Of a stretch of 64,000 nt of DNA, positions 29,975-47,665 are shown piece by piece. This DNA comes from a plasmid, in sequence record CP132319.1; one strand, given 5' to 3'. The position numbers and the translations under genes were made by a program. Numbering within the stretch: the first letter of the stretch is position 1; the number at the start of each line of letters is the position of its first letter. Under the pieces are notes generated by a model that was not told the origin of the DNA, did not search any database, and was given only the letters and a program-made list of their open reading frames with translations.

Positions 29975-30154
29975 TGGACCGAGGTAGAGCGTGACGAGGA
30001 TGAAGCCCCACTTCATCACGGCCGGTTCTGGATTGTTCCTGAATTGATCCCAGGCAACATATGCCGTGCTCAAGCCTGAAAGGACGAACCAGATGAAAAG
30101 CAGGTAGTCGATGGGCTGAATAAACACAGTGCACTCCATGTCCGTGAGAATCAT
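29975..30154 (-). pseudogene. fragment of a small membrane protein gene
   Basis: About 60 aa of hydrophobic protein-like sequence (MECTVFIQPIDYLLFIWFVLSGL...MKWGFILVTLYLGPVGL), then GC-biased nonsense overlapping moeA. Confidence 0.3.
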
Positions 30155-30308
30155 GACATGGAGCGCACCGTACCGATTCCTAGTGTTGGAAGGTCAAGGG
30201 CGGCGCCCCTATTTTGGACCCTCCATTTCTTGGACATCCCAACCCCGTCAAGCCAAAAGGAACCATAGGTACGCCGGTGGAGCGGGGGCAATAGCTTACC
30301 GAGGGCTA

Positions 30309-31310
30309 TCAAAATGACAGAAACCGCTTCAAGCTCAAACCCGCCGACAGAATGTAAGGCGGCATAGCGAGTGAATAGTGACCACAGTTCAATTGCAAAA
30401 TACTTGGTCTAGCGCCTGCGCAGGTCAGCCTCTGTATTAACCTCTCCGACAGCTCTGGCAACACCACTTTATCTCTCTTCGCCAGCACAACGTGAAGAAT
30501 GAGATCCGGTCGTGCCAAACGATCCGCGTAATTCTCGATGTTAAGTGGCGCCCAGGCTCTCCTGAGATCAGTAAGCTCAATATCCGGTTCAAGGCTCTCT
30601 CGAATTGATCGCGTGGCACGGCCGGTCCAAACCATATCCGCGAGGCTTCCTGCCGCCAGAAACAGCGAGGCCTTAGAAACGGTCGCGTCGTGCGCCGCGA
30701 TGAGGCCTGCGACCCAGGAGCCCAGGCTCATACCGAGAACAGAAATCTCTCTGTAGCCTTCACTCTTTAACCAACGAATGAGTTTGCGCCCATCCCATAC
30801 CCCCTGCCTTATCGATTGGATCGTTCGACCGAGATTCGCGCTAAGCATGTAGTCGGCGTGCGTGGACCCCGGACGGCTGCGCTCGAGGTGATACGGCATA
30901 GCAATTTCCACAACCGTTATGCCTCGCTTGGAAAAGAACCTAGCAAGCTGATTATTCCGCGCACTTGCATTCCAATGGTGAAAAACCACCATCGCTCGGT
31001 CGAGCGATCCACTCTCGGTGATCCTCGCCCAAACGACATTATTCTCGTCGATGTCGGTCAGGGTGTCCGATGGAAACTTGAGCCATCCATCTCGCCGTTT
31101 AAAACCTTGATCGCTCCTAGTCGGCTCATCGAAGAAAGTCTGATCAGCCACGGCTTGGTCGGCGAGAAGACAAAACTCCTCGATACTCCCGATCTTCGCA
31201 GCGCCTGAAAAGGCCCGTTCCGCGTCGAGCGCGAAAACCGTTGCTTTCTTGCCTTCCTCACCGCGCTTTGCCCGCCGCTCATCCCAACGATCAAGCCAAT
31301 TATGAAACAT
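30309..31310 (-). CDS. alpha/beta-fold hydrolase (Ser-Asp-His)
   Basis: GMSLGS nucleophile elbow, with downstream Asp (AKRDKVV) and His (NCGHYS). 11-bp overlap with the upstream membrane-protein gene. Confidence 0.7.
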   Translation of the reverse strand: MFHNWLDRWDERRAKRGEEGKKATVFALDAERAFSGAAKIGSIEEFCLLADQAVADQTFFDEPTRSDQGFKRRDGWLKFPSDTLTDIDENNVVWARITESGSLDRAMVVFHHWNASARNNQLARFFSKRGITVVEIAMPYHLERSRPGSTHADYMLSANLGRTIQSIRQGVWDGRKLIRWLKSEGYREISVLGMSLGSWVAGLIAAHDATVSKASLFLAAGSLADMVWTGRATRSIRESLEPDIELTDLRRAWAPLNIENYADRLARPDLILHVVLAKRDKVVLPELSERLIQRLTCAGARPSILQLNCGHYSLAMPPYILSAGLSLKRFLSF

Positions 31311-33012
31311 TCAGATTGGTCCCTACTTCACTCGCCCGCCAACGGCCGAACGCCGGATCAAACAGGCCGTAAAGCGCAAGAAGCACTCCAAGGCCCAAAA
31401 GGATCGAAAAACCAGAAAAAGCACCGATCAACAAGTAGCCTGCAACGAGCAACGCTACGACCGTCGACATCTTCCACAAAGGTACACGAAACCGGTTTCC
31501 GGTACCCAAACCGATGGCGCCAAACAAAAAAACGATGCAGGTGGAAATAACGACAAGAAGGCTGCTGTAGTGCGTCGGCATTCTATAGCCGATCGTGCCG
31601 CTCAGATTGTCGAGCCCAAAAATAGCCGCTGACATATCTCTGATCAACCAAGCCGCAATATTCTCGCCGGCCGACGTCAGGTACGAGCTTTGGCCCTTCA
31701 TGCATATGGCGACCAAAATCCCCAAAACAGTACACCTGAAAATTCCCCGGATCAGGGTCAGTCCGACTTCGTTGAGCTGGGATCGGCAATCCACCTCAGG
31801 TCGCGTTTCCAGTTTCTTTCTGATTTTGCAAAAATCATAAGCGATCGTGTAAAGCAAAATGAGGCCTGCAAAGAAAATATAGAAAGAGATCGCCATGTAC
31901 AAATATGCAATCCCTGTGAATAGCATCGCCTCCGGCACTGATATGACATCAGGGCGCACGATCGCTAATTTTCCCCAGTCCATGGCATATTCGCCGCCGC
32001 CTTTCATTAGCGGGATCAAACACACTTCGATCCACTGAACAATCCCAGCGAATACAAAGCAAACCAGAAAAACCGCCCAATAGGTAGAGGAAGAGCTTTC
32101 TACGTTGCGCGCCCAAGCATCGTGGGAGTCCGTCCCGTCGGCCTGCGCGACAAGCTTCAGACGCCCCTCGAATTTCCAGAAGGCCAGAAGCTCTATCACG
32201 AACACGAAGAATAGTGGCAGGAACACCATGAAGACGAATGTCCAATTTGGCGCCCAGAGAAACCCGACCTGCTTAACGACCCCGTCCATTCGGTCGTAAC
32301 TCGCGCTGTGAACCCCCGTAACATAGGACAAAAACCCAAGAGCGGTGGCGCCCGCAAACACCGCCGCTGGCAAATTCAAGGGAGAGCCGGAGCTAAAAAG
32401 CGCCTCTGATCTCATCGCCAAACCCAAACGCCGAACTGGCGTCTTGGCGTCCGCATCCCCTGCCAACCCTACCGAGGGCATCGTCTCATCAGGGGCGGTC
32501 GCATTTTGTGCTATATCTGGGGCTTCCGGTGCAACGCTGCTTCCGGCTTTCCTCCCGTCTCGCCTCTTGGCCGTTAATCGAGATTGGGCCTCACTCAACT
32601 CCATCTGCCATTCGCTGGTTGCGACCGGATCATCGCACCCAAAAATCCTTGCCAGCCAACGAATGTTGGCGGTGCTGATTCCCTTGTCGTTCTCTTGAAA
32701 CCAAAGTTGCACCGTGCGCAGGTCGATCCCAATCCGGTTGGCATTAATCTGTGAAATCGCCTCTGCAAGTAGCTCCGGCGTCCATGGTCCTGCTGGAAAT
32801 CCATCGCTGCCAAGCGGCCGTCCCGCTCCGGCCGCGGCCGTTCGTTTGAATAGTTCTTTGAAATCACTCCCGTCCTTCGGCGGAGGGAGAAAAAACTTTC
32901 CGTTGTTCAACAAAGACTTAGTGGCTCGCGTTTCGTTTCGTTTCGCTAGATTTCGTATCTTGTCGTGCCTTCGTTCCCAAATAGAGGCCTGTTCCCCCCG
33001 CAACAGACCCAC
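31300..33012 (-). CDS. XRE-type HTH domain fused to a large polytopic membrane domain (570 aa)
   Basis: N-terminal ~170 aa cytoplasmic part with an HTH (LLAEAISQINANRIGIDLRTVQLWFQENDKGISTANIRWLARIFG), followed by about 9 predicted TM helices. No family recognised. Confidence 0.6.
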   Translation of the reverse strand: MGLLRGEQASIWERRHDKIRNLAKRNETRATKSLLNNGKFFLPPPKDGSDFKELFKRTAAAGAGRPLGSDGFPAGPWTPELLAEAISQINANRIGIDLRTVQLWFQENDKGISTANIRWLARIFGCDDPVATSEWQMELSEAQSRLTAKRRDGRKAGSSVAPEAPDIAQNATAPDETMPSVGLAGDADAKTPVRRLGLAMRSEALFSSGSPLNLPAAVFAGATALGFLSYVTGVHSASYDRMDGVVKQVGFLWAPNWTFVFMVFLPLFFVFVIELLAFWKFEGRLKLVAQADGTDSHDAWARNVESSSSTYWAVFLVCFVFAGIVQWIEVCLIPLMKGGGEYAMDWGKLAIVRPDVISVPEAMLFTGIAYLYMAISFYIFFAGLILLYTIAYDFCKIRKKLETRPEVDCRSQLNEVGLTLIRGIFRCTVLGILVAICMKGQSSYLTSAGENIAAWLIRDMSAAIFGLDNLSGTIGYRMPTHYSSLLVVISTCIVFLFGAIGLGTGNRFRVPLWKMSTVVALLVAGYLLIGAFSGFSILLGLGVLLALYGLFDPAFGRWRASEVGTNLNVS

Positions 33013-33158: not shown

Positions 33159-33929
33159 ATGGAACGAAATATGGGCAAGCCTTTGCGTGGTCAGACAGTC
33201 CTGGTCACCGGCGCGTCGGGCGGCATAGGGGCGGCAATCGTGGAGCGCCTCGCCTCGGAGGGTGCGCGGCCAATCATCCACTATTGCCAGGACGAGGATG
33301 CGGCGGAGACACTATTGGCCCGTATTGGTGGCGACGGCTTGATGGTGCAAGCCGATCTTTCGACTTCGGAGGGGCCATGCACATTGTGGCGGAAAGCGGT
33401 TGCTTTCGCGGGACGTATTCACGGTGTCATTAACAATGCGGGTATCCGTACCGAAATTCCGATAGAGAATTCAGCCGCGGCCTGGAAGGCCGCATGGCAA
33501 ATGGAGTTTCAACTCAATCTCTTTGCTGCGGCCGATCTCTGTAGGGAGGCGATCAGGCATTTTCGAACCGAGGGTGGTGGGCGCATCATTAACATGGCAG
33601 GCCAAGCCGGTCAGCGTGGCTCCGCCGCCGACATACTGCCTCATGGCGCGACCAAGGCCGCGCTCATCAATCTCACCAAATCCATCGCCTCAAGCTTCGC
33701 TCGTGAGGGGGTGATAGCGGTGTCTATCGCACCTGGCCTCGTCCGAACGGAGATGGCAGAGAAATACATCGCCGCCCATGACAAGGGAGAAGCTGTAGGG
33801 GACATTCCAATAGGGGATATGGCCGAAGCATCCGAAATAGCTGAACTTGTCGCGTTTTTGTTGCGTCACTCTCAGGAGTCGCTCAACGGTGCCACCCTCG
33901 ATGTCAATGGCGGCAGCTATATTCGCTAA
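33159..33929 (+). CDS. SDR-family oxidoreductase
   Basis: TGASGGIG cofactor motif, NNAG, and the catalytic Y-x3-K region. Confidence 0.85.
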   Translation: MERNMGKPLRGQTVLVTGASGGIGAAIVERLASEGARPIIHYCQDEDAAETLLARIGGDGLMVQADLSTSEGPCTLWRKAVAFAGRIHGVINNAGIRTEIPIENSAAAWKAAWQMEFQLNLFAAADLCREAIRHFRTEGGGRIINMAGQAGQRGSAADILPHGATKAALINLTKSIASSFAREGVIAVSIAPGLVRTEMAEKYIAAHDKGEAVGDIPIGDMAEASEIAELVAFLLRHSQESLNGATLDVNGGSYIR

Positions 33930-33979: not shown

Positions 33980-36103
33980 TCATTCATCGGCAAGCGCGAG
34001 CGTGACCTCTTTCCGGACCTTTTTCGCCGCCCGCTTCTTCGCGGGAGAGCTTTTGAATATGGTCAAGATCTTCTCGATAGATTGGTCTGCCCCGGCCTTT
34101 CGTAGAGCGCTTGCGTCCAACGCCGATTTAAAGTCTGGAGCTGGACTTGTGCAGGACGGGTCGCTGTTCTGGCCGGGGCGCGGGGTCTCATTGGCACCCT
34201 CGGGCAGTTCATGAAATTGCTCGGGTTGCAATTGACTCGGCGGCTTCCTGAGAACCGCCGAGCTATTCGCAGCAAATTTTGCTCCGGGTATCGATATGAT
34301 CTGCGAAGCGCTGACAGGAGACGGCCCAGCCTCTGGTACTTCGAACTCGAAATTGCCAACGCCTTCAACCGACGTTTCCTTTGATGGCGCTCGCATCTGC
34401 AGCCATGCGCGCTTCGTAAGCTCCTTATCAGCATAATAGAAATTCCGTACGCCCAATATCGGCTGCTGATTTCGGAGCTTGATGATGCATCGTGTCTCGT
34501 TCATCGAACCCAATTCATCGGGGCGCATCAGGGGCCGCATCGCAGTCTTGTGGGACATCGTGGCACCCTTGCGATCGAACAGAGTCACGCCGGTCGAAAC
34601 GGCCTTATCGACCGTAACTTCCTTCCGCTCGCCGAGCAGCTGGGACACGTAGCGCTGATCCTCCGGGTCTTGCGCGCCGAGGAAGATCTGAGCGCGCGCC
34701 GAATTGACGAGGGCCTGCCGTCCCTCGCGGGTATAGACGTTGTCGATCGACCGCAGGGACTGGACGAAGAACCAGCAGGGAATGCCATAGCCACCGAGAA
34801 CGGTAGCAACAGTGAGGGCATTTTCCAGCTTGCCCAGGTTTTGGAATTCATCGAGCAGGACCAGCACGCGCCGCTCGCCGCGCTTCATCATGTTGCGCGA
34901 CATGTAGTCCATGAACTGGACCATGAGCACATTAAAGATCGGCCCGATCGAGGCGATCTGCTGGATGCGGAAATCCAGATAGAGGCTCATATTCTCGCGG
35001 CGCATCGCGCGGATGTCGAAGGTCGACCGCGCCGTCGCGCGCAGGATGCGATTGTTCTTGAACGGCCGCACCGCTGCGGCCAGCGACCCGTAGATACCAT
35101 CGAACTGCTTGCTGGCCATGACGGCGAAGCGGGCGAGGGTGGTATAGGTGAAGGAACTGATCCAAGTTTCGCGAAGCTCCGGATTGGCGACTTCCTCAAG
35201 CCATTCGCGGAGTGGCTGATCGCCACCCTCCACGACATTGAGGACCGTGCCGAGATTCTTGTCCTTGTCGAGAATATCGGGGTTTTCCAATACCCAGGAC
35301 GTGACGCCGGCGAACAGCGCACGGGCGTCGGAGATCCAATAGGCATCGCCCTTGGGCGTCGGCAACAGCGCCATCGCGATCGAGTTGATGTCGATATCGC
35401 GTTGATCAGGATCGATGGCGACGAAGTCGAGCGGATTATAGCATTCGGTATCGCCATTCTCGTCGGCTGGCGAGAAACGCAGGACGCGGGAGAATTTCGA
35501 GCGGAAGCCGGCCGTCGCCTCATAGGTCTCGCCGCGCATGTCGAGCACGACGATGCTGTCCGGCCATAGCAGGCAATTCGGCACGATGAGCGACGCGCCC
35601 TTGCCTGACCGGGGCGGGCCGATGACGAAGCCGCCTACGTCGTCGCCGTCGATCCAGAGCTTCTTGCCGCCGAACAGCATCGGTTTCAAGAACCGTCGCC
35701 GGCCAGAGCCGCGCTGGGTGAAGCCGCCCGGCACCTTGATCAGGCTGCCGCCGATCCGGCCGACGAACACACCGCCGGTGCGCGTCAGGCCGAGGGCGCG
35801 GGCTTCCAGCGGGCCGAGGAACCGGGCATCCGTCGATTTCTTCTTGCCGGTCATCGCGGTGACGAGCATGGCGCCGCCGGCGAGGAGGCCTGCCGCCGTC
35901 GCTATCGCCGGCCGATGCCAGTCGCCGGCGGCGATATCGAGCCGCGCGGCCCGATAGGACGCCAGCATATCGTCCTGCAGCGCCTGGAACATCCATGTCG
36001 AATCGTCGAAGGCATAGCAGAGGCCGGCATAGGCGAGCGAGGCAACGAACGCCGCCGCCGCTGCGGCGATGATCAGCCCGAACAGCAGGATCGCTGGGTT
36101 CAT
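33980..36103 (-). CDS. virD4: type IV coupling protein VirD4/TraG
   Basis: N-terminal TM helices, Walker A PPRSGKGAS, Walker B VLVLLDEF, 707 aa. Confidence 0.9.
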   Translation of the reverse strand: MNPAILLFGLIIAAAAAAFVASLAYAGLCYAFDDSTWMFQALQDDMLASYRAARLDIAAGDWHRPAIATAAGLLAGGAMLVTAMTGKKKSTDARFLGPLEARALGLTRTGGVFVGRIGGSLIKVPGGFTQRGSGRRRFLKPMLFGGKKLWIDGDDVGGFVIGPPRSGKGASLIVPNCLLWPDSIVVLDMRGETYEATAGFRSKFSRVLRFSPADENGDTECYNPLDFVAIDPDQRDIDINSIAMALLPTPKGDAYWISDARALFAGVTSWVLENPDILDKDKNLGTVLNVVEGGDQPLREWLEEVANPELRETWISSFTYTTLARFAVMASKQFDGIYGSLAAAVRPFKNNRILRATARSTFDIRAMRRENMSLYLDFRIQQIASIGPIFNVLMVQFMDYMSRNMMKRGERRVLVLLDEFQNLGKLENALTVATVLGGYGIPCWFFVQSLRSIDNVYTREGRQALVNSARAQIFLGAQDPEDQRYVSQLLGERKEVTVDKAVSTGVTLFDRKGATMSHKTAMRPLMRPDELGSMNETRCIIKLRNQQPILGVRNFYYADKELTKRAWLQMRAPSKETSVEGVGNFEFEVPEAGPSPVSASQIISIPGAKFAANSSAVLRKPPSQLQPEQFHELPEGANETPRPGQNSDPSCTSPAPDFKSALDASALRKAGADQSIEKILTIFKSSPAKKRAAKKVRKEVTLALADE

Positions 36104-37098
36104 AACGTGTCCGCCTTGGTGAAGACGATTTCCGAGACGACGCGGCGACCGTCCGTTAGTCGCTCGAGCTGAACGACAATGGGAATGACTTCTTTCAGGT
36201 AGTCGATGATCTCCTGCTTTCTTAGCGTGACGCCGCTCTGTAGCACCATCAGCGCCAGGCGGTCGTATGCATCTCGCGCGCTGTTTGCGTGGACCGTCGT
36301 GAGGGAACCGGGATGACCTGTATTGATCGCCTGCAGGAAGGAGAATGCCTCTTCACCCCGAAGCTCTCCCAACATTACGCGGTCCGGACGCATGCGCAAC
36401 GAAGCTTCCAGCAACTCCTGCGGCGTGACTTTGGCGCGCCCCTGATCGCCCTTTGACGCAATCAGGGCAACCGTGTTCGGGGTGATCGGCCTGAGCTCTC
36501 GTGTATCTTCTATCGTCACGATGCGTTCCTCCTCCGGCACTTCTTTCAGCAGTGCATTGAGGAATGTGGATTTGCCCGTTGAGGTGCCACCGGACACCGC
36601 GATCGAAACGCGCGAGCGCACGGCCGTCCGAAGAAACTGCAGGACGTCGACATCCCCCTTCATCATGGCAGCAAGCTGTTCCTCTGCTGCTGAGAGCGTG
36701 AGTTGCCGACCGACCTTAGTGTCATCGAAGGCACCACGGCTCTTATAGATATCCAGGCCGATATCGTGGATCACCTGCTTGCGGATCGAGATCGCGCCTC
36801 CATCGGGCGCGGCCGGCGGCAGCACGCACTGGAAGCGTTCGCCTGTCGGCAGGGACGCAGACAACATGGGCCGTTCATCGTTTACGACCTGATTGGTGGA
36901 GCCGGCGACGCGTTCGCTCAGCGTCCGTATCCATTCGGCAGAGAACTGCGTGTCGACGACACGCTCCATGCCAGCGACGCCAAGGCGTTCGACGAACAGT
37001 TCGCCGGGGCGGTTCACCGAGATTTCCGAGACGCGCTCATCCGAAAGAAACGGCTTCAGCCGCTCCAGTGCTTTGTCGAGGAACGGAAACTGCTTCAT
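36100..37098 (-). CDS. virB11: VirB11/TrbB-family T4SS ATPase
   Basis: Walker A GGTSTGKST, and the RVMLGELRG and HPGSLTTVHANSA blocks. Confidence 0.9.
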   Translation of the reverse strand: MKQFPFLDKALERLKPFLSDERVSEISVNRPGELFVERLGVAGMERVVDTQFSAEWIRTLSERVAGSTNQVVNDERPMLSASLPTGERFQCVLPPAAPDGGAISIRKQVIHDIGLDIYKSRGAFDDTKVGRQLTLSAAEEQLAAMMKGDVDVLQFLRTAVRSRVSIAVSGGTSTGKSTFLNALLKEVPEEERIVTIEDTRELRPITPNTVALIASKGDQGRAKVTPQELLEASLRMRPDRVMLGELRGEEAFSFLQAINTGHPGSLTTVHANSARDAYDRLALMVLQSGVTLRKQEIIDYLKEVIPIVVQLERLTDGRRVVSEIVFTKADTL

Positions 37099-38516
37099 TT
37101 GTAGACCGGCGCGACTGGATAGTAGGGCGTCGGATCGACGTTGCGCCGGATTTGTCCACCGCGCTTCAGCCGCATCATCTCCTGCCGGACCGGATCAGCG
37201 TAGAAGGCGGAGAAATCGAGATCGCGTCGCAGATAGACGATGATCGACTCGCCCTGGGCGACATAGATCGTCGGCGGGATTTTCGAACTTTCCTTGAACG
37301 CCTCGTTGGCGATGTCCTGCAGGATGGCCGATGATTTCTCGGCGGCAATCGAACGGGCTTCGGCGGCGGTGCGGCTCGGCTCGGTGGTGATCGTCGTCAC
37401 CACGCCGGTGATCGGATCGACGGTCGAGATCGAGCGGGCGCTTTCCGTGGCGGTGTCGCCGAGCGCCGAGACATATTCCGCCGCGCCGCCTATCACCGAC
37501 AGCATGATCGCGGAACCGAAGCGCTCCCAGAAATGCGTGTCGATCTCGCCGGTCAGCCCGGCGCGGCCGAGACGGTCGGCGCCGGGCGAGGCGATCTCGG
37601 CGGAAAGGCCGTCGGAGCGAATGACACGCGACCAGACGACGAAGATGCGCTTCTGCCCCCGCGCCGGGCCGGACTTGTATTCCCCTATCAGGCGGGAGCC
37701 CTTCGGAATGAGGATGCGAGCGCCATCGAGCGAACGGACGTCCTCGCGCACGACGGCGCGCACCATGCCCGGCAGGTCCGTGTTGATCGCTGTCTCCAGG
37801 AACCCTCGAATCATCGTGCCCTGGGCGACGAGCGCGTCGGTCCGGTCGAAGCGTGTTGCCTTGACGATGCCGGCGGTCTGCTTTTCCGACTGCGCGAGGA
37901 ACGCCTTGTTGGCGTCGCTCTCCGCGCCGGGAACCGCGACAAGCTGACCCTCATCGGCGATCGTCACCGACTGGTCTCCGGCCGACAGGCTTTCGCGGCC
38001 GGAACCGTCGACGATGATCTGTTCAGAGCGCAGCCGTTCCCAGCGCGCCTTCTCTTCATCTTCCAGGCGTTTGGCCTCCAGCGCGGCAAGCCTCGCATCC
38101 TCTTCGGCACGCCGGCGCGCTTCTTCCGCCCGAAGCCGCTCCTCCTCGGCGCGACGACGCGCCTCTTCGATCTGGTGCAACTTTTCGAGATCGTCACCCT
38201 GATTGACGGTGACGTCGACAGTAGCGGAGTCCACCGGCTTCTTCTCTTCGACCGGAATCTGCACCAGGTTCGGATCGGCCGCCTGTTTCACCGGCTCGTC
38301 GGGGAAATCGCGGATGCTGGAGTTCGACGTCTCGAAGGTCTCGCCGGTGCCCTCAGTCAGATTGGAGGTCTGCGGGCCGGTCGGCCAGTTAACATAGGCG
38401 AGGATGCCGGCGCCGACGACAAGCAGGAGAGGGAGGGCGAGCTTGCCCAAGCGACCGTTGCGGTCGCTCGCCACGCTGCTTTGCCCGTCGAGGTGGTCGA
38501 AATCGATCTTGCTCAT
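37095..38516 (-). CDS. virB10: VirB10/TrbI
   Basis: N-terminal TM, a Pro- and coiled-coil-rich linker ([16 protein letters not shown]), and a C-terminal beta-barrel domain ([24 protein letters not shown]). Confidence 0.85.
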
Positions 38517-39295
38517 CGCTGGCGCTCCTCTTTGCTGCCGAGGCGCTTCGGCCCGTAGGCGTCTTCGATGAGATCGAAGGATTGGCGATTGGCCTGCCGA
38601 TTATAGAGGCACAGCCACTTGTCGCCGGCGCGCAGCGTGAACTGCGCCGCGATCTTGTCGACCACCACGTATTTGCCCTGGGTGCGCAGGTTGACGAGCG
38701 ATTCCTGACGCTTGCCCTCGACGACGAAAATGGCGGGGATTTCGTCGGGGAATTCCAGATACATATGCGTGCCGTCGTCGAAAGCGACACGCGGCTTCAG
38801 GCTGGTATCGCCCTTGAACACATAGTCGTAGTTCAGACGGCCTGGATCGAGATCCTTGAGCAGCGGATCCTTGGCGCTTTCCTGTGCGGCGGCCAGCAGC
38901 CGCGCGTTGACGTCCTCGTCCGGATATTTGAACCGCACCTGGAATGCCGCGCGCAGGTCGGCCGCCGCCGAGCCTTTCAGCAGCAAGGCATAAACGCGCT
39001 GGTTGGTGACGATGTTGACGTTCGTTTCGGCATTCTCGCGCAACGGCTTCACGAACAGGATGCCGGAGCCCTTCTTGGGGACGATCGACCAGCTGGCCGT
39101 GTCGCCGGCCGAGATCGTCTCGATCACCTCGGAGCTGCCGAGCTGGATCATCGTCGAGACGCCAAGCCCCGCCGGCACGGTCACGACGGAATTATTGTTG
39201 AAGGTGATGTAGCGGATGCGAGGATCGGCCGCCGTGGATGTGATCGCTGTGACGAGCAGCGCGAGCGTTGCGAGAGCAAGGAAGGATTTCCGCAT
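38513..39295 (-). CDS. virB9: VirB9/TrbG
   Basis: Signal peptide [14 protein letters not shown] and the conserved VirB9 beta-domain. Start set at the internal Met of the listed ORF. Confidence 0.85.
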
Positions 39296-40029
39296 CAGCG
39301 TGCCGCCTTGTCCGCCGGCAGGACTTCGGGCAGCGATTCCTGGTCGCGCCTGTATTCGACGACCTGAAAGCCGAGAGGATTGTCGAAGCGATATTCGTTC
39401 TTCAGCGGCGCCGTCGTATAGCGGAAGCGGACCACCGAGACCCAGTGCTCGCGGCGAAGGGTGTTGTCGCGCCGCGTCTCCGTCGAAAAGCGCACGGTCG
39501 CCGTGGAGGCGTTGAGGAACGAGACCGACTTGATGGTGACAGCGATGCGCGTGTCGCGGCCGAGCACCTTGTCCTTCGACTGCGGGTTCGACGGCTCGAA
39601 CTCGTGTCGCAAGTCCGCCGAGGCCTGACCCGTCGAATAGAGTTGGGCGAGATCGTAATTGTCCTTCAGTGCCCGAGGATCGTAGGTCTCGCGCGCGCGG
39701 ATGTAGCGCACGATGTTCGCCGTCTTGATCGCGTCGTTTTCGGAAAGCTTGCTCTCGTTCAGGGACCGGGCGACCTCGACGAAGCCGGTGGTCTTGTCGG
39801 CGATCACCACCACGGCCTCGAATTGCTTCAGAGGAACGAGAAGGTTGAGGGCCGAGAGGCTGAGCATCGTGGAGATGCCGGCGACTGTCGCAACCGTCCA
39901 GGCAATTTTCCGTGAGCGGCGCTCCTTGCGATAAAGCTCCGCCTCCCAAGAGGCGCCGGCTTTCCAGTAGGCGGTCAGGTCGATCGGCGGAGTTTCGGGT
40001 GTGTGTTCGGTTGGATCTGCGTTGCTCAT
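39295..40029 (-). CDS. virB8: VirB8/TrbF
   Basis: Single N-terminal TM plus a periplasmic NTF2-like domain. Confidence 0.8.
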
Positions 40030-40060
40030 TTGGGCTTCCGATAAACCGCCAAGTACGACG

Positions 40061-40080
40061 GAATTAAATATAGTTTATTC
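40061..40080. repeat. AT-rich TATA-centred box, copy 1 of 4 (GAATTAAATATAGTTTATTC)
   Basis: Intergenic, just upstream of virB8. Shares the AyTATArTTA core with copies at 40827, 47611 and 49211. Confidence 0.35.
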
Positions 40081-40187
40081 GTCAGGCCGAGCGATCACCT
40101 CTACCGGCCAAATCGGTGCTGAGGTGAGGGCTGGTTTGCCTGGATTACTGGAGCGCGTTCAGCTCCGTGGCGCAGTCGTCCGAAGAG

Positions 40188-40559
40188 CTAGCTGCACCAC
40201 TTCATCAGCGTTTTCTTCGACGCCGTATTGGAGAAGTAGAAAGAGCGATCATCCTTCACCTCGATGCGGACCGTGTCGGGGTCACCGTCTGATTCATCAG
40301 AGCCAGCCTCGACCCATAGGACATCGAGAACATAGGAATTTCCCTCGTTTTTGACGGATAGAACCTTCCCGGCGGTCTTGTTGGCGCCAATCCCCTTGTC
40401 CTCGATATAGATAAACGCGGCGGCCGCGGCTTCGCAGCCACCTTCGACCGGTGCATATGCGCCGGTCAGCACAGGCAGGATCGAGCTTGGCGATTGGGAC
40501 CATGCCGTTCCGGGGAGCAGCAGGCCGACCGCAGTCATGGTCGAGGCGATTTTCTTCAT
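40188..40559 (-). CDS. small exported protein in the virB6-virB8 gap (not a lipoprotein)
   Basis: SPase I-type signal (LLLPGTAWS-QS), 123 aa. Confidence 0.5.
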   Translation of the reverse strand: MKKIASTMTAVGLLLPGTAWSQSPSSILPVLTGAYAPVEGGCEAAAAAFIYIEDKGIGANKTAGKVLSVKNEGNSYVLDVLWVEAGSDESDGDPDTVRIEVKDDRSFYFSNTASKKTLMKWCS

Positions 40560-40574
40560 GGAGAAGTTTCCCGC

Positions 40575-40811
40575 TCAGAATCCGAACATGCTGCCGACGC
40601 TTTGTGCATATCCGGCCAGCGTGTTGTAGAGGTCGATGCAATATTCGGCGAACGGTTTGAAGAAGATGACGGCGCCGATGAAAAGCAGGACGCCGAGACC
40701 TCCGCCCTTCTTGGCCTCGGCGCGATCGTTGTCTGCCATCTCTTCGTTGAGACGGTTTTGCGCGTCCATGGCGGCGAAGCGCCGACGGTCATCTTGCCAA
40801 GGGTGATCCAC
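40575..40811 (-). CDS. small single-TM protein in the virB6-virB8 gap
   Basis: Charged N-terminus, then the TM segment GGLGVLLFIGAVIFF. Confidence 0.4.
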   Translation of the reverse strand: MDHPWQDDRRRFAAMDAQNRLNEEMADNDRAEAKKGGGLGVLLFIGAVIFFKPFAEYCIDLYNTLAGYAQSVGSMFGF

Positions 40812-40826
40812 GGCTATTCTCCTTCG

Positions 40827-40844
40827 GATAAATTATAGTTACCA
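40827..40844. repeat. AT-rich TATA-centred box, copy 2 of 4 (GGATAAATTATAGTTACC)
   Basis: Intergenic between virB6 and the small ORFs. Confidence 0.35.
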
Positions 40845-40866
40845 AGAATGCGCATAAGAGACTACC

Positions 40867-41886
40867 CTAAAGTTGCCCATTCTTTTCGGTTTCTCGCTGG
40901 ATTGCGCGGGCTCGAGCTGCCTGAACATCCGTCGATGTGCGGCGACGACCAAGGCCGGCACGCAGGAGCCGAGCGCGTCCGCTGACCTGGCGTTCAGCAT
41001 AGGCGACCGAACGCCGGCCGCCGATAAAGGCGGAATCGCCTTGCCCCAAAACACTGCCTCCAACGATGGATGCGGCGAAGGAGGGGATGAAGCGAAAAAC
41101 GACGATCCCGAGCAGGCAGACGATCACGAACGGAGCGACATAGGAGAGCTTGCTTTCCGTAGCGGTATTGTTGGCCGTGTTGATCGCCAGTTCGATGAGT
41201 TGGTAGAGGAAGGCGAGGAACGCCATCATCAAGGTCTGCGTCACCATCAGGTTGACCATCAACAAGAGCCAGCCGTCGGTAAAGCGGAAGGTCCAGCGGT
41301 AGAGCGCCAGGATGATGAACACCGGCGCCAGTGCCAGGGTGATGAACAGCATCAGCTTGGCGGCGAGAATCGCGGCCGCTGCGACGGCGATGAAGATCAT
41401 CGCGACGACAAAGACGATCGCACCGATCAGAGCGCCGACATATTCGAAGGTGCCGGTCGCCACCTGCTCGTAAATCTTACCTGCGGTCTCAAAGACGGCG
41501 TCTAGGATCTTCACCACGCCCGTCGTGTCGCCCGTGCCGCCATCGAGCGCCCCACCCGAGCCAGCGATCGACTCGATGATCGTGTCGGAAATCAGATTGG
41601 GGACCTCCTGGACGAGCTTGTAGAGCGTGGCGGAAAATGCCCCCCAGTTCGTCGCCATATAGTAGATGAAGAATGCGCGGCCGAGCCGCCAGGCCGCCTC
41701 CGGCACGGAGAAACCGTCGCGGCCGGCGAGGATCATATAGCCCCACCAGAGAACGTAAAGCGTCAGCATCGACCCGAACAGGACATTCACCTGTAGCGCG
41801 AGACCGTCATAGGCGTTCTTGATAAACGTCTCGCCGATGGCGTCGAGCTTGGAAAAAATGTCCGAGATGATCGTGGTCGCCGCCAT
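40867..41886 (-). CDS. virB6: VirB6/TrbL
   Basis: Polytopic membrane protein, 339 aa. Confidence 0.8.
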   Translation of the reverse strand: MAATTIISDIFSKLDAIGETFIKNAYDGLALQVNVLFGSMLTLYVLWWGYMILAGRDGFSVPEAAWRLGRAFFIYYMATNWGAFSATLYKLVQEVPNLISDTIIESIAGSGGALDGGTGDTTGVVKILDAVFETAGKIYEQVATGTFEYVGALIGAIVFVVAMIFIAVAAAAILAAKLMLFITLALAPVFIILALYRWTFRFTDGWLLLMVNLMVTQTLMMAFLAFLYQLIELAINTANNTATESKLSYVAPFVIVCLLGIVVFRFIPSFAASIVGGSVLGQGDSAFIGGRRSVAYAERQVSGRARLLRAGLGRRRTSTDVQAARARAIQRETEKNGQL

Positions 41887-41890
41887 TCGC

Positions 41891-42064
41891 CTATTCCTTC
41901 AGGACGGGGGCGAAGACGTCGTTGACCGGCATGGCCGGACCGCACAGGTCATCGGCCTCGGCATATCCCGAGATCGGCGGGCAGGGGGCCTTCTTCTCAC
42001 CTTTCGTCTGGCAACCGACGAGCAGGGCGAGACCGGAAAGCATGATGGCAACGGGCATTCTCAT
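41891..42064 (-). CDS. unlisted 57-aa lipoprotein ORF, entry-exclusion (Eex)-like position between virB5 and virB6
   Basis: My translation: MRMPVAIMLSGLALLVGCQTKGEKKAPCPPISGYAEADDLCGPAMPVNDVFAPVLKE, lipobox LLVGC. It occupies the same slot as eex in pKM101-type operons. Confidence 0.45.
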   Translation of the reverse strand: MRMPVAIMLSGLALLVGCQTKGEKKAPCPPISGYAEADDLCGPAMPVNDVFAPVLKE

Positions 42065-42070
42065 GCGGCC

Positions 42071-42787
42071 TCACTTGAACGGGTTGACGTCTTTGTATTG
42101 CAGCATCTTGGCTGTCTCCGACTGCTGGGTCAGCCGCATCTGCATTTCGGTGTTCAGAGCCGAGACCGCGCCGTTCGAGACGCCGATCAACTCGTTGATG
42201 GTGCGCGCCGTCTCCAGCTGCATGCGGGTGTTGGCGTCGACCGAACCCTTCACATCTTCGGCCGAGCCGATCTGGCCGGTGGCCGACTGCAACGACTGCT
42301 CGCGCTGCGACACGCCTTTGGTTGCCTGCTGCGTCAGCGCCGAGAGCAGCGCCACCGTATTGACGGCGCCGGAAAAGGCATTGTTCATCGCCCCGGCATC
42401 CTCGCCTTCGACGATCGCCTTGACCTGTTTCACCAGCTGCAGGCCGTTGATCAGCGTCGCCGCGATATTCTGCGCGCCTGAGCCAAGTCCACCGAACGAC
42501 AGCGTGCCGCCGTTCATAATCGAGCTGAATGACGGTGCGGCCGAGACCGACATGTTGCCGCCGAGGCCGGTCGAGGAAATCCCCATCGAGCCGTCGCGAC
42601 TACCGGAGAGCGCGCCGAGGATCTCCTTGGTCTTTTCGAGGATGTTGGTGTTGGTCTTCATGATCTCGCCGGTGTTTTCCGCGTTCTTCCTGGCGATCGC
42701 GAGATTGGTGTTATCGATCACCGGTATGTCGGCGAGCGCCGGCGTCGAGAAGGCGAGGGCGGCGGAGACGATGAGCAGCTTGTTCAT
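42071..42787 (-). CDS. virB5: VirB5/TrbJ-family minor pilus protein
   Basis: Signal peptide ending ALADIPVID, alpha-helical, with a C-terminal YKDVNPFK. Confidence 0.7.
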   Translation of the reverse strand: MNKLLIVSAALAFSTPALADIPVIDNTNLAIARKNAENTGEIMKTNTNILEKTKEILGALSGSRDGSMGISSTGLGGNMSVSAAPSFSSIMNGGTLSFGGLGSGAQNIAATLINGLQLVKQVKAIVEGEDAGAMNNAFSGAVNTVALLSALTQQATKGVSQREQSLQSATGQIGSAEDVKGSVDANTRMQLETARTINELIGVSNGAVSALNTEMQMRLTQQSETAKMLQYKDVNPFK

Positions 42788-42797
42788 GGGAACCCCC

Positions 42798-43961
42798 TTA
42801 ATCGGCCGCGTTGGCGGCGTTCTGGATGGATAGAAGATTGTTGCCGATCGAGCGGTCCGTACCGCCGGACGAGAGAATTTCTGTATCGGCGTCGGCGGCC
42901 GCGACCACCGCGCAGCGCGGCCAGTCCTCGCGCGGCACCTTCATCTCTTCGAGGATGACCCGGTCGCAGCTGTAGGGATTGACCTTGGCGTCGGATTTGA
43001 GGGTCTTGGCCGTCTCGGACGTTTTCGACAGATTCATCTGCATGCGCGCCTGCAGCAGTTCGTTGAACAGGTTGCGGGCGGTGATCAAGTTGTTGAGCAG
43101 CTCGGCATTGACGGCGCGAGCCTGCGTGTTGTCGTCCCAGGCATCCTGGTAGATCTCCGACGCGCCGACCGAGGCCGACAGCGCATCGATGCGACGGCCC
43201 GCCTCCTGGACGCGTGCGGTGCTTGCGTCGATCCCCGAAACGGCACGGTCGACCGCGCCGGCCGCCGCTCTGTTGGAACTGCGGGTCGCTCCGGAACCGT
43301 AATCGACATAGGATTTATAGGACGGCGAGGAGATGTCCTCGATGTTCGAGCCGCCGGCGAATGAATTAAACCAGCCATGGTTCCGGCCGACCTTGCCGGC
43401 CCAATTCTTCTGCTCCGCCGCCGTCGAGCCGTTATACCAGGACGCGAGGCAGGCATAGTCGGTGCTGCCGCACTTGTTGACGCCCATGCCGAGGTATTTG
43501 ACGCCGCCCTCGATATTCTCCTCGTTGATGTCTCGGTCGAAGCCCATGCCTTTGCCGGTCCGCTTCGTCAGCTGCATCACGCCCTTCACGCCGGTCGGCG
43601 AGCCCGAGCAGGTCGAGATGCCGGATTCCGCATGCGCAACGGCCAAAGCAAGGCCAACCGGAACATTGTACTTTTCCGCATAATGCTTGATCAATTCAAC
43701 GTTCTTGGCATCCTCCTTCACCGCCTGCGCCGGCGAACGGTAGAGACGGCGGTTCTTTTCCTTCTGGGAGATGTTGCAGTTCGTCACCGTTTGCTCTTCG
43801 AGCTGGTCGGATTGTGTTTCGGTGTCCTGCTTGGAATGTCCTTCATCCTCCGCCCGCTTTTCCTTCACATCGTCGTCGATGACCGGAATGTCGGCGAATG
43901 CCGCTGGCGCCGGTGCGGTGACGAGCGCGGCAGAAAGCAGGAGCAGGATCGTTCTACGCAT
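42798..43961 (-). CDS. chimeric protein: VirB5-like N-terminus and C-terminus with an inserted lytic transglycosylase (SLT) domain
   Basis: Signal peptide ending AFADIPVID (as in VirB5), an SLT catalytic motif (LALAVAHAESG...GVMQL), and a C-terminus (NLSKTSETAKTLKSDAKVNPYS) paralogous to the VirB5 C-terminus. Confidence 0.65.
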   Translation of the reverse strand: MRRTILLLLSAALVTAPAPAAFADIPVIDDDVKEKRAEDEGHSKQDTETQSDQLEEQTVTNCNISQKEKNRRLYRSPAQAVKEDAKNVELIKHYAEKYNVPVGLALAVAHAESGISTCSGSPTGVKGVMQLTKRTGKGMGFDRDINEENIEGGVKYLGMGVNKCGSTDYACLASWYNGSTAAEQKNWAGKVGRNHGWFNSFAGGSNIEDISSPSYKSYVDYGSGATRSSNRAAAGAVDRAVSGIDASTARVQEAGRRIDALSASVGASEIYQDAWDDNTQARAVNAELLNNLITARNLFNELLQARMQMNLSKTSETAKTLKSDAKVNPYSCDRVILEEMKVPREDWPRCAVVAAADADTEILSSGGTDRSIGNNLLSIQNAANAAD

Positions 43962-46365
43962 CGGCCGCCTCCGGAATGGTCCAGCCACAGAAATGAGGGA
44001 GCCACGCGGCCGGCTCGTCGCCATAGGTCTCGCGCAGCGTCTGGCACTCGCGCACCGTCTCCGGCCGCCCGGACAAGACCTTCACCAGGTCGGGCATCGC
44101 CGATAGATCGAGCCGCGCGATCACCGAGTCCTGGGCGTGCTTGATGAGGAAGGTGCGGCTCGTCTTGTCTGCCTGCTTCACGAAGCGGAATTCCTTTTCC
44201 GACAGGCCGAACGCCTTGCGGTAGCTCTCCTCGTCGGCCGACGCATTCGGGAAGAAGATGTTGGTCATCGTCTGTTCGATGATCGTGTTGCGCAGGTCGG
44301 AACGCACCACGTCGGCGGCCGACTGTGTGCCGAAGCCGACTATGCCGTTCATCTTGCGGATCGTCTTCAGCCAATCCTTGATGAAGCCGGAGAAGACCTC
44401 GTCATCGAGCAGGCGCCAGCCTTCGTCGAGGAAGATCATCGAGGGGCGGCCGTCGAGGATCTCCTGAATACGATGGAACATATAGAGGAGCGCCGCCGAG
44501 CGCGTGCGCTTGTCGGACAGGATCTCAGTCATGTCGAAGCCGATCACCGAGCCGGCAAAATCCAGCCTGTCGGTCGGGTTGTTGAACAGCCAGCCCTTGT
44601 CGCCCGTCGTCCATTCCTTCAGCCGGTCGGCGAGATCGCCAATGCCGGATCGCATCCTGCCGCGAAGCGCTTCCGCCAGCATGTCGAGACGCCGCTGTGG
44701 TCGTTCGAAATCGGTGTAGATGCTGTCGACCGCATCGGAGATGACCGCCATCTCCTCGGCATTCAGCACCCGGTCCGACGGTGTGACAAGATAAGAGACC
44801 AGCGTCTTGCCGAAGCTGCGGTTGGCGGGCGTGTCTTCAAGCTGCAGCGGCGCAAAGCCGGTCGGCTCGCCCGGCGAAAGTCGCTCATAACGCCCGCCCA
44901 TAGCGCGCACGAAGATCTCGCCACCGCGATCCTTGTCGATGAAGACGCAGCGCGGCCGCGGGTTAACGCGCATGCCCTGGGCGAGAAGGAAGGAAAGCGC
45001 CACCGTCTTGCCCGAGCCGGTCGGGCCGATGACGGTGAAGTTGCCGACATCTGCCTCATGGAAATTGAAGAAATAGGCGGTCTGGCTGGTAGTCTCCAGC
45101 AGCGAGATCGGCAGGCCCCAATGGACCTTTTGCGTCTGCCCGGACGGAAAATTGTGCGCGGAGAAGAGGCCGGCGAAGTTGACCGACGAGATTAACCCCT
45201 GCCGGGCAATGTAGGAAAAGTTGGTCGGCAGTTGCGCCCACCAGGCCGCTTCCTGATTGAGGTCTTCGCGCACGGCGACCACACCCATGCGCGCCAGCTC
45301 CGCCGTGACGTCTGCGACGGCGCGGTTGAGCCGCGGCAGGTCGCGCTCAAGCACCGCCACCGTCATGTGATGTTTGCCGAACACCACTTCGCCCGAGGCC
45401 AGCCGGTCGCGCGCCGTTTCGATATCGTCTTCGACCGCCGTGCCGCCATCGTCGGAATTCGAAATTTGCCGGCTGATGGTGGCGATCGCCTCCGTGACCG
45501 TCGTCCGGTCCTCCGGGGCGAAGGAATGGGTGACGATGAACTCGTAGGGCAGGCGCAGCAGCCCATCGAGCTGGCCGGGCGTCGTCATCGGCGGATATTC
45601 CTTGATCGACACCATGGCGGCGACCTTGGAGGTCGCGCCATCCGCCGACCAGATTTCCGTGGCCTTGCGACCAAACATGATCCGGCCGGTCCCGACATAA
45701 TCGGCGAGCGACATGCGGGGCAGGGGCATCGTCCGCTCGTCGCCGGCGGCGAGGATCTTGGCGAAGAACTCGGCCGGCTCGGAATAGAGGCCGCCATCGC
45801 GGCTGACGCAGGAAAGGATTTCCGGGCGGTAGGAGCGGAAATCGCCGACAATGCCCGAGACCATGTCCTTCAGGTCGCGCAGCGCCTCGCCGCGGGCTTC
45901 GACCTCGTTGTCGGCCATGCGGAAGACATCGAACATCCGGTCGACCTTGCCGGCGCGGCCAGTCATCGGCCGGCGGATGACCGTCAGGTATAGTTCGTTG
46001 ACGAACATCGTCCGGTGCTGCAGCCCATCCATGTAGCGGGCGTTCAGCTCATCTGCGAAGGGATTGTCGAATTCACCGTCAATTGCCGGCTTGATCTGCC
46101 GGCGGATGATCGTGGCATAGAGCGCAAAGCGTGACGATCCGAGGGAGCGGACCGTCATGTTGCGGTTGGCGAGGCGAGCATTGATCTCCGCCTGATCCAT
46201 CGTTTGATAGGGCAGGCCAGAGAGACGGATGACCTGTAGCAGCAGGCCGGACTTGGTGACGATCGTCTCCTCGTCGACATGGCGCAGATAGGGGACGTGC
46301 GTGCCGATCCCCAGGTCGCGAGCGCGTTCCCGGCCGAACTTCAGGTCGTGATTGACGATGTTCAT
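43954..46365 (-). CDS. virB4: VirB4/TrbE T4SS ATPase
   Basis: Walker A GPTGSGKT, Walker B MIFLDEGW, about 800 aa. Confidence 0.9.
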   Translation of the reverse strand: MNIVNHDLKFGRERARDLGIGTHVPYLRHVDEETIVTKSGLLLQVIRLSGLPYQTMDQAEINARLANRNMTVRSLGSSRFALYATIIRRQIKPAIDGEFDNPFADELNARYMDGLQHRTMFVNELYLTVIRRPMTGRAGKVDRMFDVFRMADNEVEARGEALRDLKDMVSGIVGDFRSYRPEILSCVSRDGGLYSEPAEFFAKILAAGDERTMPLPRMSLADYVGTGRIMFGRKATEIWSADGATSKVAAMVSIKEYPPMTTPGQLDGLLRLPYEFIVTHSFAPEDRTTVTEAIATISRQISNSDDGGTAVEDDIETARDRLASGEVVFGKHHMTVAVLERDLPRLNRAVADVTAELARMGVVAVREDLNQEAAWWAQLPTNFSYIARQGLISSVNFAGLFSAHNFPSGQTQKVHWGLPISLLETTSQTAYFFNFHEADVGNFTVIGPTGSGKTVALSFLLAQGMRVNPRPRCVFIDKDRGGEIFVRAMGGRYERLSPGEPTGFAPLQLEDTPANRSFGKTLVSYLVTPSDRVLNAEEMAVISDAVDSIYTDFERPQRRLDMLAEALRGRMRSGIGDLADRLKEWTTGDKGWLFNNPTDRLDFAGSVIGFDMTEILSDKRTRSAALLYMFHRIQEILDGRPSMIFLDEGWRLLDDEVFSGFIKDWLKTIRKMNGIVGFGTQSAADVVRSDLRNTIIEQTMTNIFFPNASADEESYRKAFGLSEKEFRFVKQADKTSRTFLIKHAQDSVIARLDLSAMPDLVKVLSGRPETVRECQTLRETYGDEPAAWLPHFCGWTIPEAADA

Positions 46366-46661
46366 GGGGCGTAGCTCCCCGCTTTCCAGAAGCGCCGGTT
46401 GCGGATCGCCCGCCGCATCGACAGGAACACCTGCGCCACGCGGACGATGTGGATGTCCCGCTGGCACAGGTACAGGGCGATGAAATGGACGGGCAGGACG
46501 ATCAGCGGCGCCAGGAAATTCGACGACGCGATGAAGACGACGATCCCGAAAATGCCGTTCACCACGAACACGATGATGTCGACCCCGAAATACATCGGCG
46601 GCTTGGTCAGCGGCTGGATGAGAGGTTCGACATCGGGAGCGTCGTCACGCATGTCAGACAC
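46362..46661 (-). CDS. virB3: VirB3/TrbD
   Basis: 99 aa with a TM hairpin, overlapping the virB4 start. Confidence 0.75.
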   Translation of the reverse strand: MSDMRDDAPDVEPLIQPLTKPPMYFGVDIIVFVVNGIFGIVVFIASSNFLAPLIVLPVHFIALYLCQRDIHIVRVAQVFLSMRRAIRNRRFWKAGSYAP

Positions 46662-46977
46662 CCCCGGCCGCCTTCATGGCGTCGACCAGTTCGGCGGCGC
46701 CGAAGATGATCGCGATGCCGATGACGATGGAGATCGCGCCCTGCCAGGCCATGCGTCCGGTCAGGAACAGGAAGCCGAGGAAGCAGACGGCGATGATCGC
46801 GAGCGACCGGGCGACGCTGCCCTGCAGGACGCCGGTGAACCATTCGAGGATGCCTTCGACCGGCGCGGCCGATTGCGCATAGGCCAATTCCGGGACCAGC
46901 GCGATGGAAGTCGCAAGGACCGCCAGCGACAGGAGGGCCTTGCCGGGGAGGCGCGGCGTCATCGTGGAAATGCTCAT
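46654..46977 (-). CDS. virB2: VirB2/TrbC pilin
   Basis: Long signal peptide, then two hydrophobic helices. Confidence 0.75.
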   Translation of the reverse strand: MSISTMTPRLPGKALLSLAVLATSIALVPELAYAQSAAPVEGILEWFTGVLQGSVARSLAIIAVCFLGFLFLTGRMAWQGAISIVIGIAIIFGAAELVDAMKAAGGV

Positions 46978-47025
46978 TCGAAAGTCCTTCTGATCTTGGG
47001 AGGTTGAGGTTGGAGGGAACCAGCG

Positions 47026-47634: not shown

Positions 47635-47665
47635 TATGGGATTCCCCTGTCAATTCGGAAATGGC

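Follow-up and report, generated by a model that had tools for sequence, protein, structure and literature searches.

The window analysed here is a 64,000-nt stretch of the plasmid record CP132319.1, with positions counted from its first letter. Segment by segment it is 97.8–99.9% identical to the Shinella sumterensis plasmid NZ_CP132308.1, a 119-kb repABC replicon rich in copper and arsenic resistance genes; its annotation holds a virB1–virB11 operon and a virD4-type coupling gene, with a MobC and relaxase pair elsewhere on the plasmid. Two open reading frames (ORFs) on the minus strand share 11 nt: one of 570 aa that opens with a GTG, at 31300..33012, and one of 333 aa, at 30309..31310. The larger protein matches the NCBIfam model NF047336 (conj_memb_RcgA, "RcgA family putative transporter") with 923.3 bits (E 4e-278; cut-off 325), residues 36–570 of the long ORF aligning with positions 3–537 of the 537 in the profile. 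The smaller matches NF047337 (hydrolase_RcgR, "RcgR family putative quorum lactone hydrolase") with 623.7 bits (E 6.5e-188; cut-off 182) over profile positions 1–332 of 332. Homologues in a large protein collection bear the names RcgA or RcgR in NCBI and UniRef, and those of RcgA carry Pfam PF28285; a Pfam scan of the two proteins themselves gave nothing useful for the large one and a weak Abhydrolase_6 match for the small one. It is hardly in doubt that the pair belongs to the RcgA–RcgR family (rcgA–rcgR, rhizobial conjugative gene, operon). An earlier interpretation drawn from the letters alone (the sequence-only reading) recognised no described family for the pair. This is wrong, as NF047336, NF047337, PF28285 and two dedicated papers exist; the pair is already named, modelled in NCBIfam and Pfam and genetically studied, with complementation assays that included a Shinella orthologue.

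The stop of rcgA and the start of rcgR overlap by 11 nt (ATGTTTCATAA) at 31300..31310 on the minus strand, as the sequence-only reading had it, and an AGGGA Shine–Dalgarno-like stretch (31320–31324, minus strand) precedes the rcgR start. The same translational-coupling junction, RTGTWTCATAR with a GGA-rich Shine–Dalgarno-like stretch before it, is kept in 55 of 61 loci from genomes and 77 of 78 from metagenomes (132/139 together), and the overlap is therefore not due to chance. Judged from these junctions, the translation of rcgR is tied to that of rcgA by a near-invariant 11-nt overlap. The loci come from a genome scan with one genome per species (73 RcgA loci) and a metagenome scan (80 more); the latter looked for more distant RcgA, returned solely relatives of 56–99% identity and was used for the junction and triad statistics. 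The gene next downstream of rcgA is rcgR in 61/61 complete genome loci with an RcgA at least 52% identical to the present one and in 78 of the 80 metagenome loci, the remaining two being cut by contig ends. Co-conservation of the pair, for which the sequence-only reading proposed phylogenetic profiling, is thus very strong. The RcgA family is small and coherent: clustering at 50% of a set of 1.84 billion proteins yields 295 representatives, mostly full length. Of 72,556 plasmids, 229 carry it; all 229 come from Rhizobiales or Rhodobacterales, and 123 are typed as conjugative. A census of neighbours that took in the two closest ORFs to either side at 36 non-redundant loci (crude ORF calling) showed no third constant partner; it gave a relaxase at seven loci, a short-chain dehydrogenase/reductase (SDR) at four, a coupling protein at three and TraR at one.

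RcgA and its upstream leader

The rcgA coding sequence runs from 32913 to 31300 on the minus strand (31300..32913; stop 31300–31302), starts with TTG at 32913 and encodes 537 aa; RefSeq WP_306041697.1 has the same coordinates. The length of 570 aa given in the sequence-only reading therefore needs shortening, RcgA being probably 537 aa. The 33 additional codons of the long ORF (32914..33012, minus strand) are most likely an untranslated leader, since the RefSeq start and the 537-position profile agree with the TTG, homologue lengths cluster at 535–537 aa, and at two loci (L011 and L014) the extra codons are put out of frame by a net 1-nt indel located after the upstream GTG and before the TTG. 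The conserved leader motif described below also falls within this segment.

An AlphaFold2 model of RcgA was built on 70 diverse homologues (mean predicted local distance difference test, pLDDT, 87.6). It consists of an N-terminal domain of five helices (residues 18–124; 32542..32862, minus strand), a disordered linker (residues 127–157; 32443..32535, minus strand) and a helical membrane domain (residues 165–518; 31360..32421, minus strand). The N-terminal domain is modelled with a putative XRE/HigA-like helix-turn-helix (HTH) fold and is the best-conserved part of the protein, with 83% conservation over residues 41–110. Seven columns are invariant in an alignment of 24–80% identity, and four of them (G31, W44, R66, and W71) fall in this domain. 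The linker has a pLDDT below 50 and the lowest conservation in RcgA. The N-terminal XRE-type domain of the sequence-only reading stands as a cytoplasmic-type helical domain with an HTH fold in the model; an HTH match at the level of sequence was not obtained, and a profile search of the PDB for the RcgA HTH returned solely a homeodomain helix (E 0.29). The 2022 text on the orthologue puts the HTH at the C terminus of RcgA (PMC9601222), a placement that does not fit the modelled Shinella protein, where the HTH-like domain is predicted to be N-terminal.

By hydropathy and in the model, RcgA has about eight hydrophobic helices, with basic loops placed as the positive-inside rule would predict for an N-in/C-in arrangement; TMHMM in the 2022 paper gave six transmembrane helices for RcgA (PMC9601222). 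The polytopic membrane domain proposed earlier is confirmed, and its count of about nine helices comes down to about eight. The domain fits no housekeeping permease family, in line with the lack of a transporter motif noted before. Its transmembrane core, compared as a predicted model with solved structures of insect odorant and gustatory receptors, is structurally similar to them, and the predicted fold thus resembles the tetrameric ligand-gated channels of the seven-transmembrane ion channel (7TMIC) superfamily, which includes these receptor channels and proposed bacterial 7TMICs. A canonical 7TMIC has seven transmembrane helices, a cytoplasmic N terminus and an extracellular C terminus and forms a tetrameric cation channel, whereas RcgA is predicted to have eight helices in the N-in/C-in arrangement and an extra N-terminal HTH-like domain. 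The preprint of Himmel, Moi and Benton on bacterial 7TMICs does not mention RcgA (10.1101/2023.08.30.555482).

An A-rich leader, GCACGA..ACGAA..(CGAAA)3..TAAG, is located 12–62 nt before the TTG start (32925..32975, minus strand). In the form GCACGA..ACGAA..(CGAAA)2-4..TAAG..TTG it is found in the 60 nt before rcgA at 129 of 157 loci, among them loci of Paracoccus, Phaeobacter, and Tritonibacter with 39–54% protein identity and the traR-linked locus L024. Over positions −62 to −12, the majority fraction reaches 0.77 across 66 non-redundant loci; the corresponding values are 0.61 for third codon positions and 0.45 for sequence lying further upstream. The window has a single copy of the motif, whose core of 50 nt contains 24 A and 3 U. 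A structured RNA was considered and rejected: RNAalifold gave no consensus structure, the minimum free energy z-score is −0.06 and Rfam has no match for the leader. A role as target of the RcgA HTH found no support, as the putative recognition helix LRTVQLWFQEN is identical across loci with the CGAAA leader and loci with an alternative (type 2) leader, with no covariation. Nor is there support for the type 2 leader as a mark of the traR-linked group X described below, since L024 has the CGAAA leader and the type 2 loci are without a divergent traR-sized ORF. A direct-repeat operator that binds a protein is more likely, or else an unstructured leader that feeds translation from the TTG start, which is near-universal in the family. 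The accessible text of the 2022 and 2026 papers of Castellani et al. (PMC9601222, PMC13055273) does not mention it. Simple scans of the region for promoters, terminators and repeats gave nothing above background.

RcgR and the hydrolases that replace it

The rcgR coding sequence (30309..31310, minus strand; NF047337) encodes an α/β-hydrolase of 333 aa. The predicted catalytic residues are Ser195 in a GxSxG nucleophile elbow (codon 30726–30728), Asp280 (30471–30473), and His311 (30378–30380), all on the minus strand. An oxyanion-type HHWN motif is located at residues 111–114. Across 118 unique RcgR sequences the three catalytic residues and HHWN never vary, a property shared by only 49 of the 333 positions. 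In Foldseek the closest structure is the uncharacterised 4z8z (4.5e-11), followed by CE7 acetyl-xylan esterases and dienelactone-hydrolase-like enzymes. The Ser–Asp–His hydrolase called in the sequence-only reading is thus borne out by both fold and triad. Residues 1–21 (31248–31310, minus strand) form an N-terminal helix outside the hydrolase core, modelled with low confidence, in which W5, L6, D7, W9, D10, E11, R13, A14, G17, and K21 are invariant. This helix may serve in interaction or in association with the membrane, which would relate to the dual localisation reported for RcgR.

In diverged lineages, the position of RcgR is taken by other enzymes. Eleven RcgA homologues (28–44% identity; L063–L065, L067, L159–L165) each adjoin a serine hydrolase of about 305–345 aa from a family other than RcgR. 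Ten of the eleven partners are α/β-hydrolases, nine of them classed as Hydrolase_4/lysophospholipase-L2-like, and one has a β-lactamase fold. The nine Hydrolase_4-type partners, classified by sequence, keep a Ser, Asp, and His of their own. Four Rhodobacterales RcgA homologues (39–44% identity) are followed by an ORF of 315–344 aa that is lysophospholipase-L2/Hydrolase_4-like; tblastn had suggested that RcgA stands without a hydrolase at these four loci, an idea dropped when inspection of the ORFs found the hydrolase of the other family in position. Five metagenomic representatives (28–33% identity) also pair with a Hydrolase_4-like protein, with one 8-nt overlap, one 4-nt overlap and one convergent arrangement. 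A sixth metagenomic locus (L163) pairs RcgA with the β-lactamase-fold serine hydrolase (PF00144, 3e-18). On an annotated Phaeobacter plasmid the order is virB operon, rcgA-like gene, α/β-hydrolase, zeta toxin, VirD4, and relaxase, the class of this partner being that of the RefSeq product name alone. Profile–profile comparison with hhalign gave no family-level link between the diverged partners and RcgR. From these sequences, the constant of the wider family is RcgA with a catalytically intact serine hydrolase rather than RcgR as such. Since the partner is exchanged for other intact serine hydrolases, an enzymatic role is favoured over models with a non-catalytic repressor.

On Roseobacter litoralis pROLI83 (L166, 10844–16514), an rcgA-like gene and its hydrolase partner are located beside genes for a DEAD-box helicase, an ATP-binding protein, phospholipase D, and a DGQHR-domain protein. 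This setting resembles a defence island, is free of type IV secretion system (T4SS) neighbours and is the sole context of its kind that was seen.

Conjugation genes around the pair and experiments on orthologues

The nearest gene upstream of rcgA encodes a FabG-like SDR oxidoreductase (33171..33929, plus strand), divergent from rcgA (Pfam adh_short 1.3e-37; NCBIfam matches all below cut-offs). It is followed by a VirD4/TraG-type type IV coupling protein gene (33980..35854, minus strand, with the RefSeq start; the longest ORF extends to 36103), which matches NCBIfam VirD4 at 1.9e-51, below the equivalog cut-off. The virB1–virB11 mating-pair-formation (Mpf) operon (36100..47586, minus strand, after RefSeq of the near-identical plasmid) lies upstream and is co-directional, with an SLT domain in its first gene. 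The coupling protein reported nearby in the sequence-only reading is therefore accompanied by a full virB operon. The SDR stands where pLPU83a-type plasmids have traR. The virD4–SDR–rcgA arrangement was seen in six other plasmids or contigs of Shinella and Rhizobium daejeonense (including L003, L011, L014, L167, and L168) and there only. Sinorhizobium medicae pMl1 has the same T4SS and the SDR beside virD4, with an IS3 element next to them at the place expected for rcgAR. The SDR was considered as a component of the system and set aside as context, since it belongs to no specific family, is confined to loci arranged as in Shinella and keeps its place by virD4 in the absence of rcgAR.

All annotated plasmid contexts that were examined, pROLI83 apart, have the pair inside or beside a conjugation module (virB/virD4, relaxase, or TraG genes). 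In R. ruizarguesonis, the neighbours of rcgAR are a relaxase-like gene, parA and nucleases, including a thermonuclease. No traR, traI or traM is annotated on the 119-kb plasmid, where the PLSDB gene tables are incomplete and an unannotated small regulator could escape. A TraR-type gene lies directly upstream in one of 36 non-redundant loci (L024). With no traR annotated here and TraR upstream in 1/36 loci, lower traR transcription, the single molecular effect documented for RcgR, cannot account fully for most members, the present one included.

The pLPU83a proteins (group X, rhizobial I-C) share with the present pair the full-length families, the gene order, the overlapping junction, and the placement among conjugation genes, and the CGAAA leader is also found at L024, a traR-linked locus of the pLPU83a layout. 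Group X differs in having traR divergent and directly upstream of rcgA together with a Trb-type Mpf; here the divergent gene is the SDR, the Mpf is of the VirB type and no traR is annotated. The VirD4 gene directly upstream is likewise unlike the pLPU83a layout. Group Y S. meliloti plasmids (for example pSmeLPU88a and pSymA of RU11/001) also have a VirB-type Mpf with virD4 and no traR, and their proteins are about 68–71% (RcgA) and 78% (RcgR) identical to the present ones. The group Y context is further defined by rptA upstream. In these plasmids, however, virB is convergent with rcgR and the upstream neighbour is a small hypothetical gene, whereas virB–virD4 here is upstream and co-directional with the SDR in between.

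The genetics of the pair were established by Castellani et al. on plasmid pLPU83a of Rhizobium favelukesii. In the 2022 study, reverse transcription PCR placed rcgA and rcgR on one transcript, deletion of rcgA abolished conjugative transfer, and deletion of rcgR raised both transfer and traR expression (PMC9601222). The genes of Shinella sp. DD12 and S. meliloti LPU88 complement the rcgA and rcgR mutants of pLPU83a (PMC9601222), which makes the DD12 homologues functional by this assay. In the 2026 study, RcgA fused to green fluorescent protein (GFP) was exclusively and uniformly membrane-localised and migrated above 180 kDa, and RcgR–GFP was found in the cytosol and associated with the membrane (PMC13055273). 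In the rcgR mutant, traR is the most induced gene (log2 fold change 7.8, about 200-fold), all tra and trb genes come next, and rcgA transcription falls; in the rcgA mutant, conjugation transcripts and proteins are unchanged (PMC13055273). Plasmid stability is unaffected, and deletion of rcgR boosts conjugation with no toxicity or defence phenotype (PMC9601222, PMC13055273). Control of conjugation, one of the functions offered in the sequence-only reading, is thus correct for the orthologue, where loss of rcgA ends transfer and loss of rcgR raises it and de-represses traR (PMC9601222, PMC13055273).

Proposed roles, rival explanations and flanking genes

By analogy with the orthologues, the same two roles, RcgA required and RcgR damping, are very probably played on the present Shinella plasmid. 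The account as a whole, an rcgA–rcgR orthologue beside VirB/VirD4 genes with the mechanism that follows, is probably the best explanation of the locus. The two genes would be read from one transcript, as shown for the orthologue, with tight translational coupling at the junction present here. RcgA would sit in the inner membrane, where the VirB/VirD4 machine would need it post-transcriptionally as an accessory or gate; as the orthologue is needed for transfer without changing the expression of transfer genes, the step would be at the membrane or in transfer itself. RcgR could quite possibly be a serine hydrolase whose substrate, a small ester, lactone or lipid-like molecule, would promote transfer if not removed. 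The invariant triad and the replacement of the partner by other serine hydrolases point to such an enzyme. RcgA might need, admit or sense the molecule of RcgR, or might couple the DNA-processing machinery to the secretion channel. The 2022 discussion already proposed that RcgR hydrolyses a signal, possibly imported by RcgA (PMC9601222).

With no annotated traR on the plasmid, damping here must act otherwise than by traR repression of the pLPU83a type, and the target of RcgR would therefore be other than the published one. On the Ti plasmid of Agrobacterium, TraR-dependent conjugation is held down by the N-acyl-homoserine lactone (AHL) lactonase AttM/BlcC and by the anti-activator TraM. There too the activator signal is removed or blocked by a hydrolase or antagonist linked to the plasmid, which keeps conjugation off, and the NCBI name of RcgR, "putative quorum lactone hydrolase", recalls quenching of the AttM type. 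The enzymes differ, AttM being a metallo-β-lactamase-fold lactonase and RcgR a Ser–Asp–His α/β-hydrolase. Unlike the Ti system, pLPU83a is unresponsive to AHLs, and repression by RcgR is independent of TraM (PMC13055273). A more speculative and improbable version would combine these elements: RcgA as a bacterial 7TMIC channel fold with an XRE-like domain, the coupled hydrolase making or destroying a lipophilic ester or lactone ligand, and the pair gating T4SS plasmid transfer without LuxR/TraR, with the operon under the CGAAA leader. If true, this would be the first physiological role for a bacterial 7TMIC and a new signalling layer for conjugation.

A different division of labour would make RcgR a non-catalytic regulator that binds shared promoter DNA or inactivates an activator, as a TraM-like anti-activator, with the hydrolase fold as a scaffold. 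The transcript pattern of the pLPU83a rcgR mutant, with traR most raised, tra/trb following and rcgA transcription lowered, fits control at promoter level, the partly cytosolic RcgR–GFP agrees with it, and the invariant residues W5, L6, D7, W9, D10, and E11 of the N-terminal helix outside the core could serve as an interaction motif. This reading is nevertheless unlikely. Pfam and NCBIfam detect no DNA-binding domain in RcgR, a pure scaffold would not need Ser, Asp, His, and HHWN to be invariant in 118 sequences, and the partners that replace RcgR in diverged lineages are unrelated serine hydrolases with retained triads; moreover, the TraR-type gene on which such control would act is upstream in 1/36 loci and is not annotated on the present plasmid. 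Somewhat doubtful, too, is an arrangement with no small molecule at all, in which RcgA is a purely structural or coupling accessory of the T4SS, its HTH tethering the relaxosome or plasmid DNA beside VirD4, and RcgR an envelope-remodelling esterase or lipase. It would explain why RcgA is essential for transfer with transcript and protein levels unchanged, and the uniform membrane localisation is like that of a coupling protein. The gene lies between Mpf genes and those for DNA transfer and replication (Dtr) or coupling proteins in Shinella, Phaeobacter, and pLPU83a-type plasmids, the N-terminal domain is the most conserved, and the partners in diverged lineages are lysophospholipase-like. However, well-studied VirB/VirD4 and Trb systems transfer DNA without RcgA, as the 2022 authors remark (PMC9601222), S. 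medicae pMl1 has the same T4SS and SDR with no rcgAR at that position, the core of the HTH is acidic, and an envelope role for RcgR leaves the 200-fold de-repression of traR unexplained.

The sequence-only reading had also considered an anti-phage defence or abortive-infection module, in which a sensor in the membrane would switch on an effector of the lipase or esterase type. The architecture of membrane protein and hydrolase would suit it, as would the one Roseobacter plasmid with DEAD-box helicase, phospholipase D, and DGQHR (Dnd-like) genes. This module is extremely improbable: models of PADLOC-DB gave zero families for either protein at E ≤ 1, RcgA is confined to conjugative-type plasmids of two alphaproteobacterial orders, and the neighbours are conjugation genes, not defence islands. 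The orthologue experiments, with conjugation raised by the rcgR deletion, no toxicity or defence phenotype and unaffected plasmid stability, speak against it as well.

Several points weigh against the preferred account of a required membrane protein RcgA and a damping hydrolase RcgR. Function is carried over from orthologues of about 57–70% identity, and in cis-background assays the native DD12 rcgA failed to rescue the pLPU83a rcgA mutant (PMC9601222). The models of the 2026 authors favour transcriptional interference or inhibition of TraR (PMC13055273). The enzymatic role of RcgR is a prediction, and a triad can also stay invariant because it binds a ligand that is not turned over. Confidence in the model of RcgR is moderate (pLDDT 71) and low near Asp280 and His311. 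For RcgA, no HTH family, HTH_3 and HTH_31 included, matches at E ≤ 1 in Pfam or NCBIfam, and the net acidic charge of the HTH core counts here also. The 7TMIC likeness is a match of prediction to structure at 3–10% identity with a weak Foldseek signal, and eight helices do not fit the canonical seven-helix N-in/C-out topology. The incompleteness of the gene tables bears on the absence of traR, as stated above.

The locus represents a natural variant of the system, in which rcgAR is coupled to VirB/VirD4 on a metal-resistance plasmid of a human-associated Shinella isolate with no annotated traR. To the published picture the comparison across the family adds several features: the invariant triad, the serine-hydrolase replacement in Rhodobacterales, the 11-nt junction, the CGAAA leader, and the predicted 7TMIC-like fold.

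The segment that carries rcgAR (30001–32000) has a G+C content of 0.53 and a strongly negative GC skew (−0.11), the flanks having a G+C content of about 0.58–0.63. Beyond the virB operon, a hypothetical gene and a RefSeq thermonuclease-family gene (47636–48794, plus strand) are divergent from virB1 (47026–47586, minus strand). A thermonuclease/WGR gene pair beside the Dtr region of pLPU83a is induced in the rcgR mutant; Pfam gave no match for the ORFs at 47636–48794, including the WGR domain, which was looked for as in pLPU83a. An overlapping antitoxin/toxin-like pair of 83 aa and 100 aa (28013–28563, plus strand), the first of which RefSeq names an antitoxin, is located between the copper-resistance genes and a MoeA/gephyrin-like molybdotransferase gene (28714–29931). 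The latter lies just downstream of rcgR and is a pseudogene, with the nonsense mutation R173* (CGA to TGA) at 29413–29415 (minus strand); NZ_CP132308.1 has the intact gene of 405 aa.

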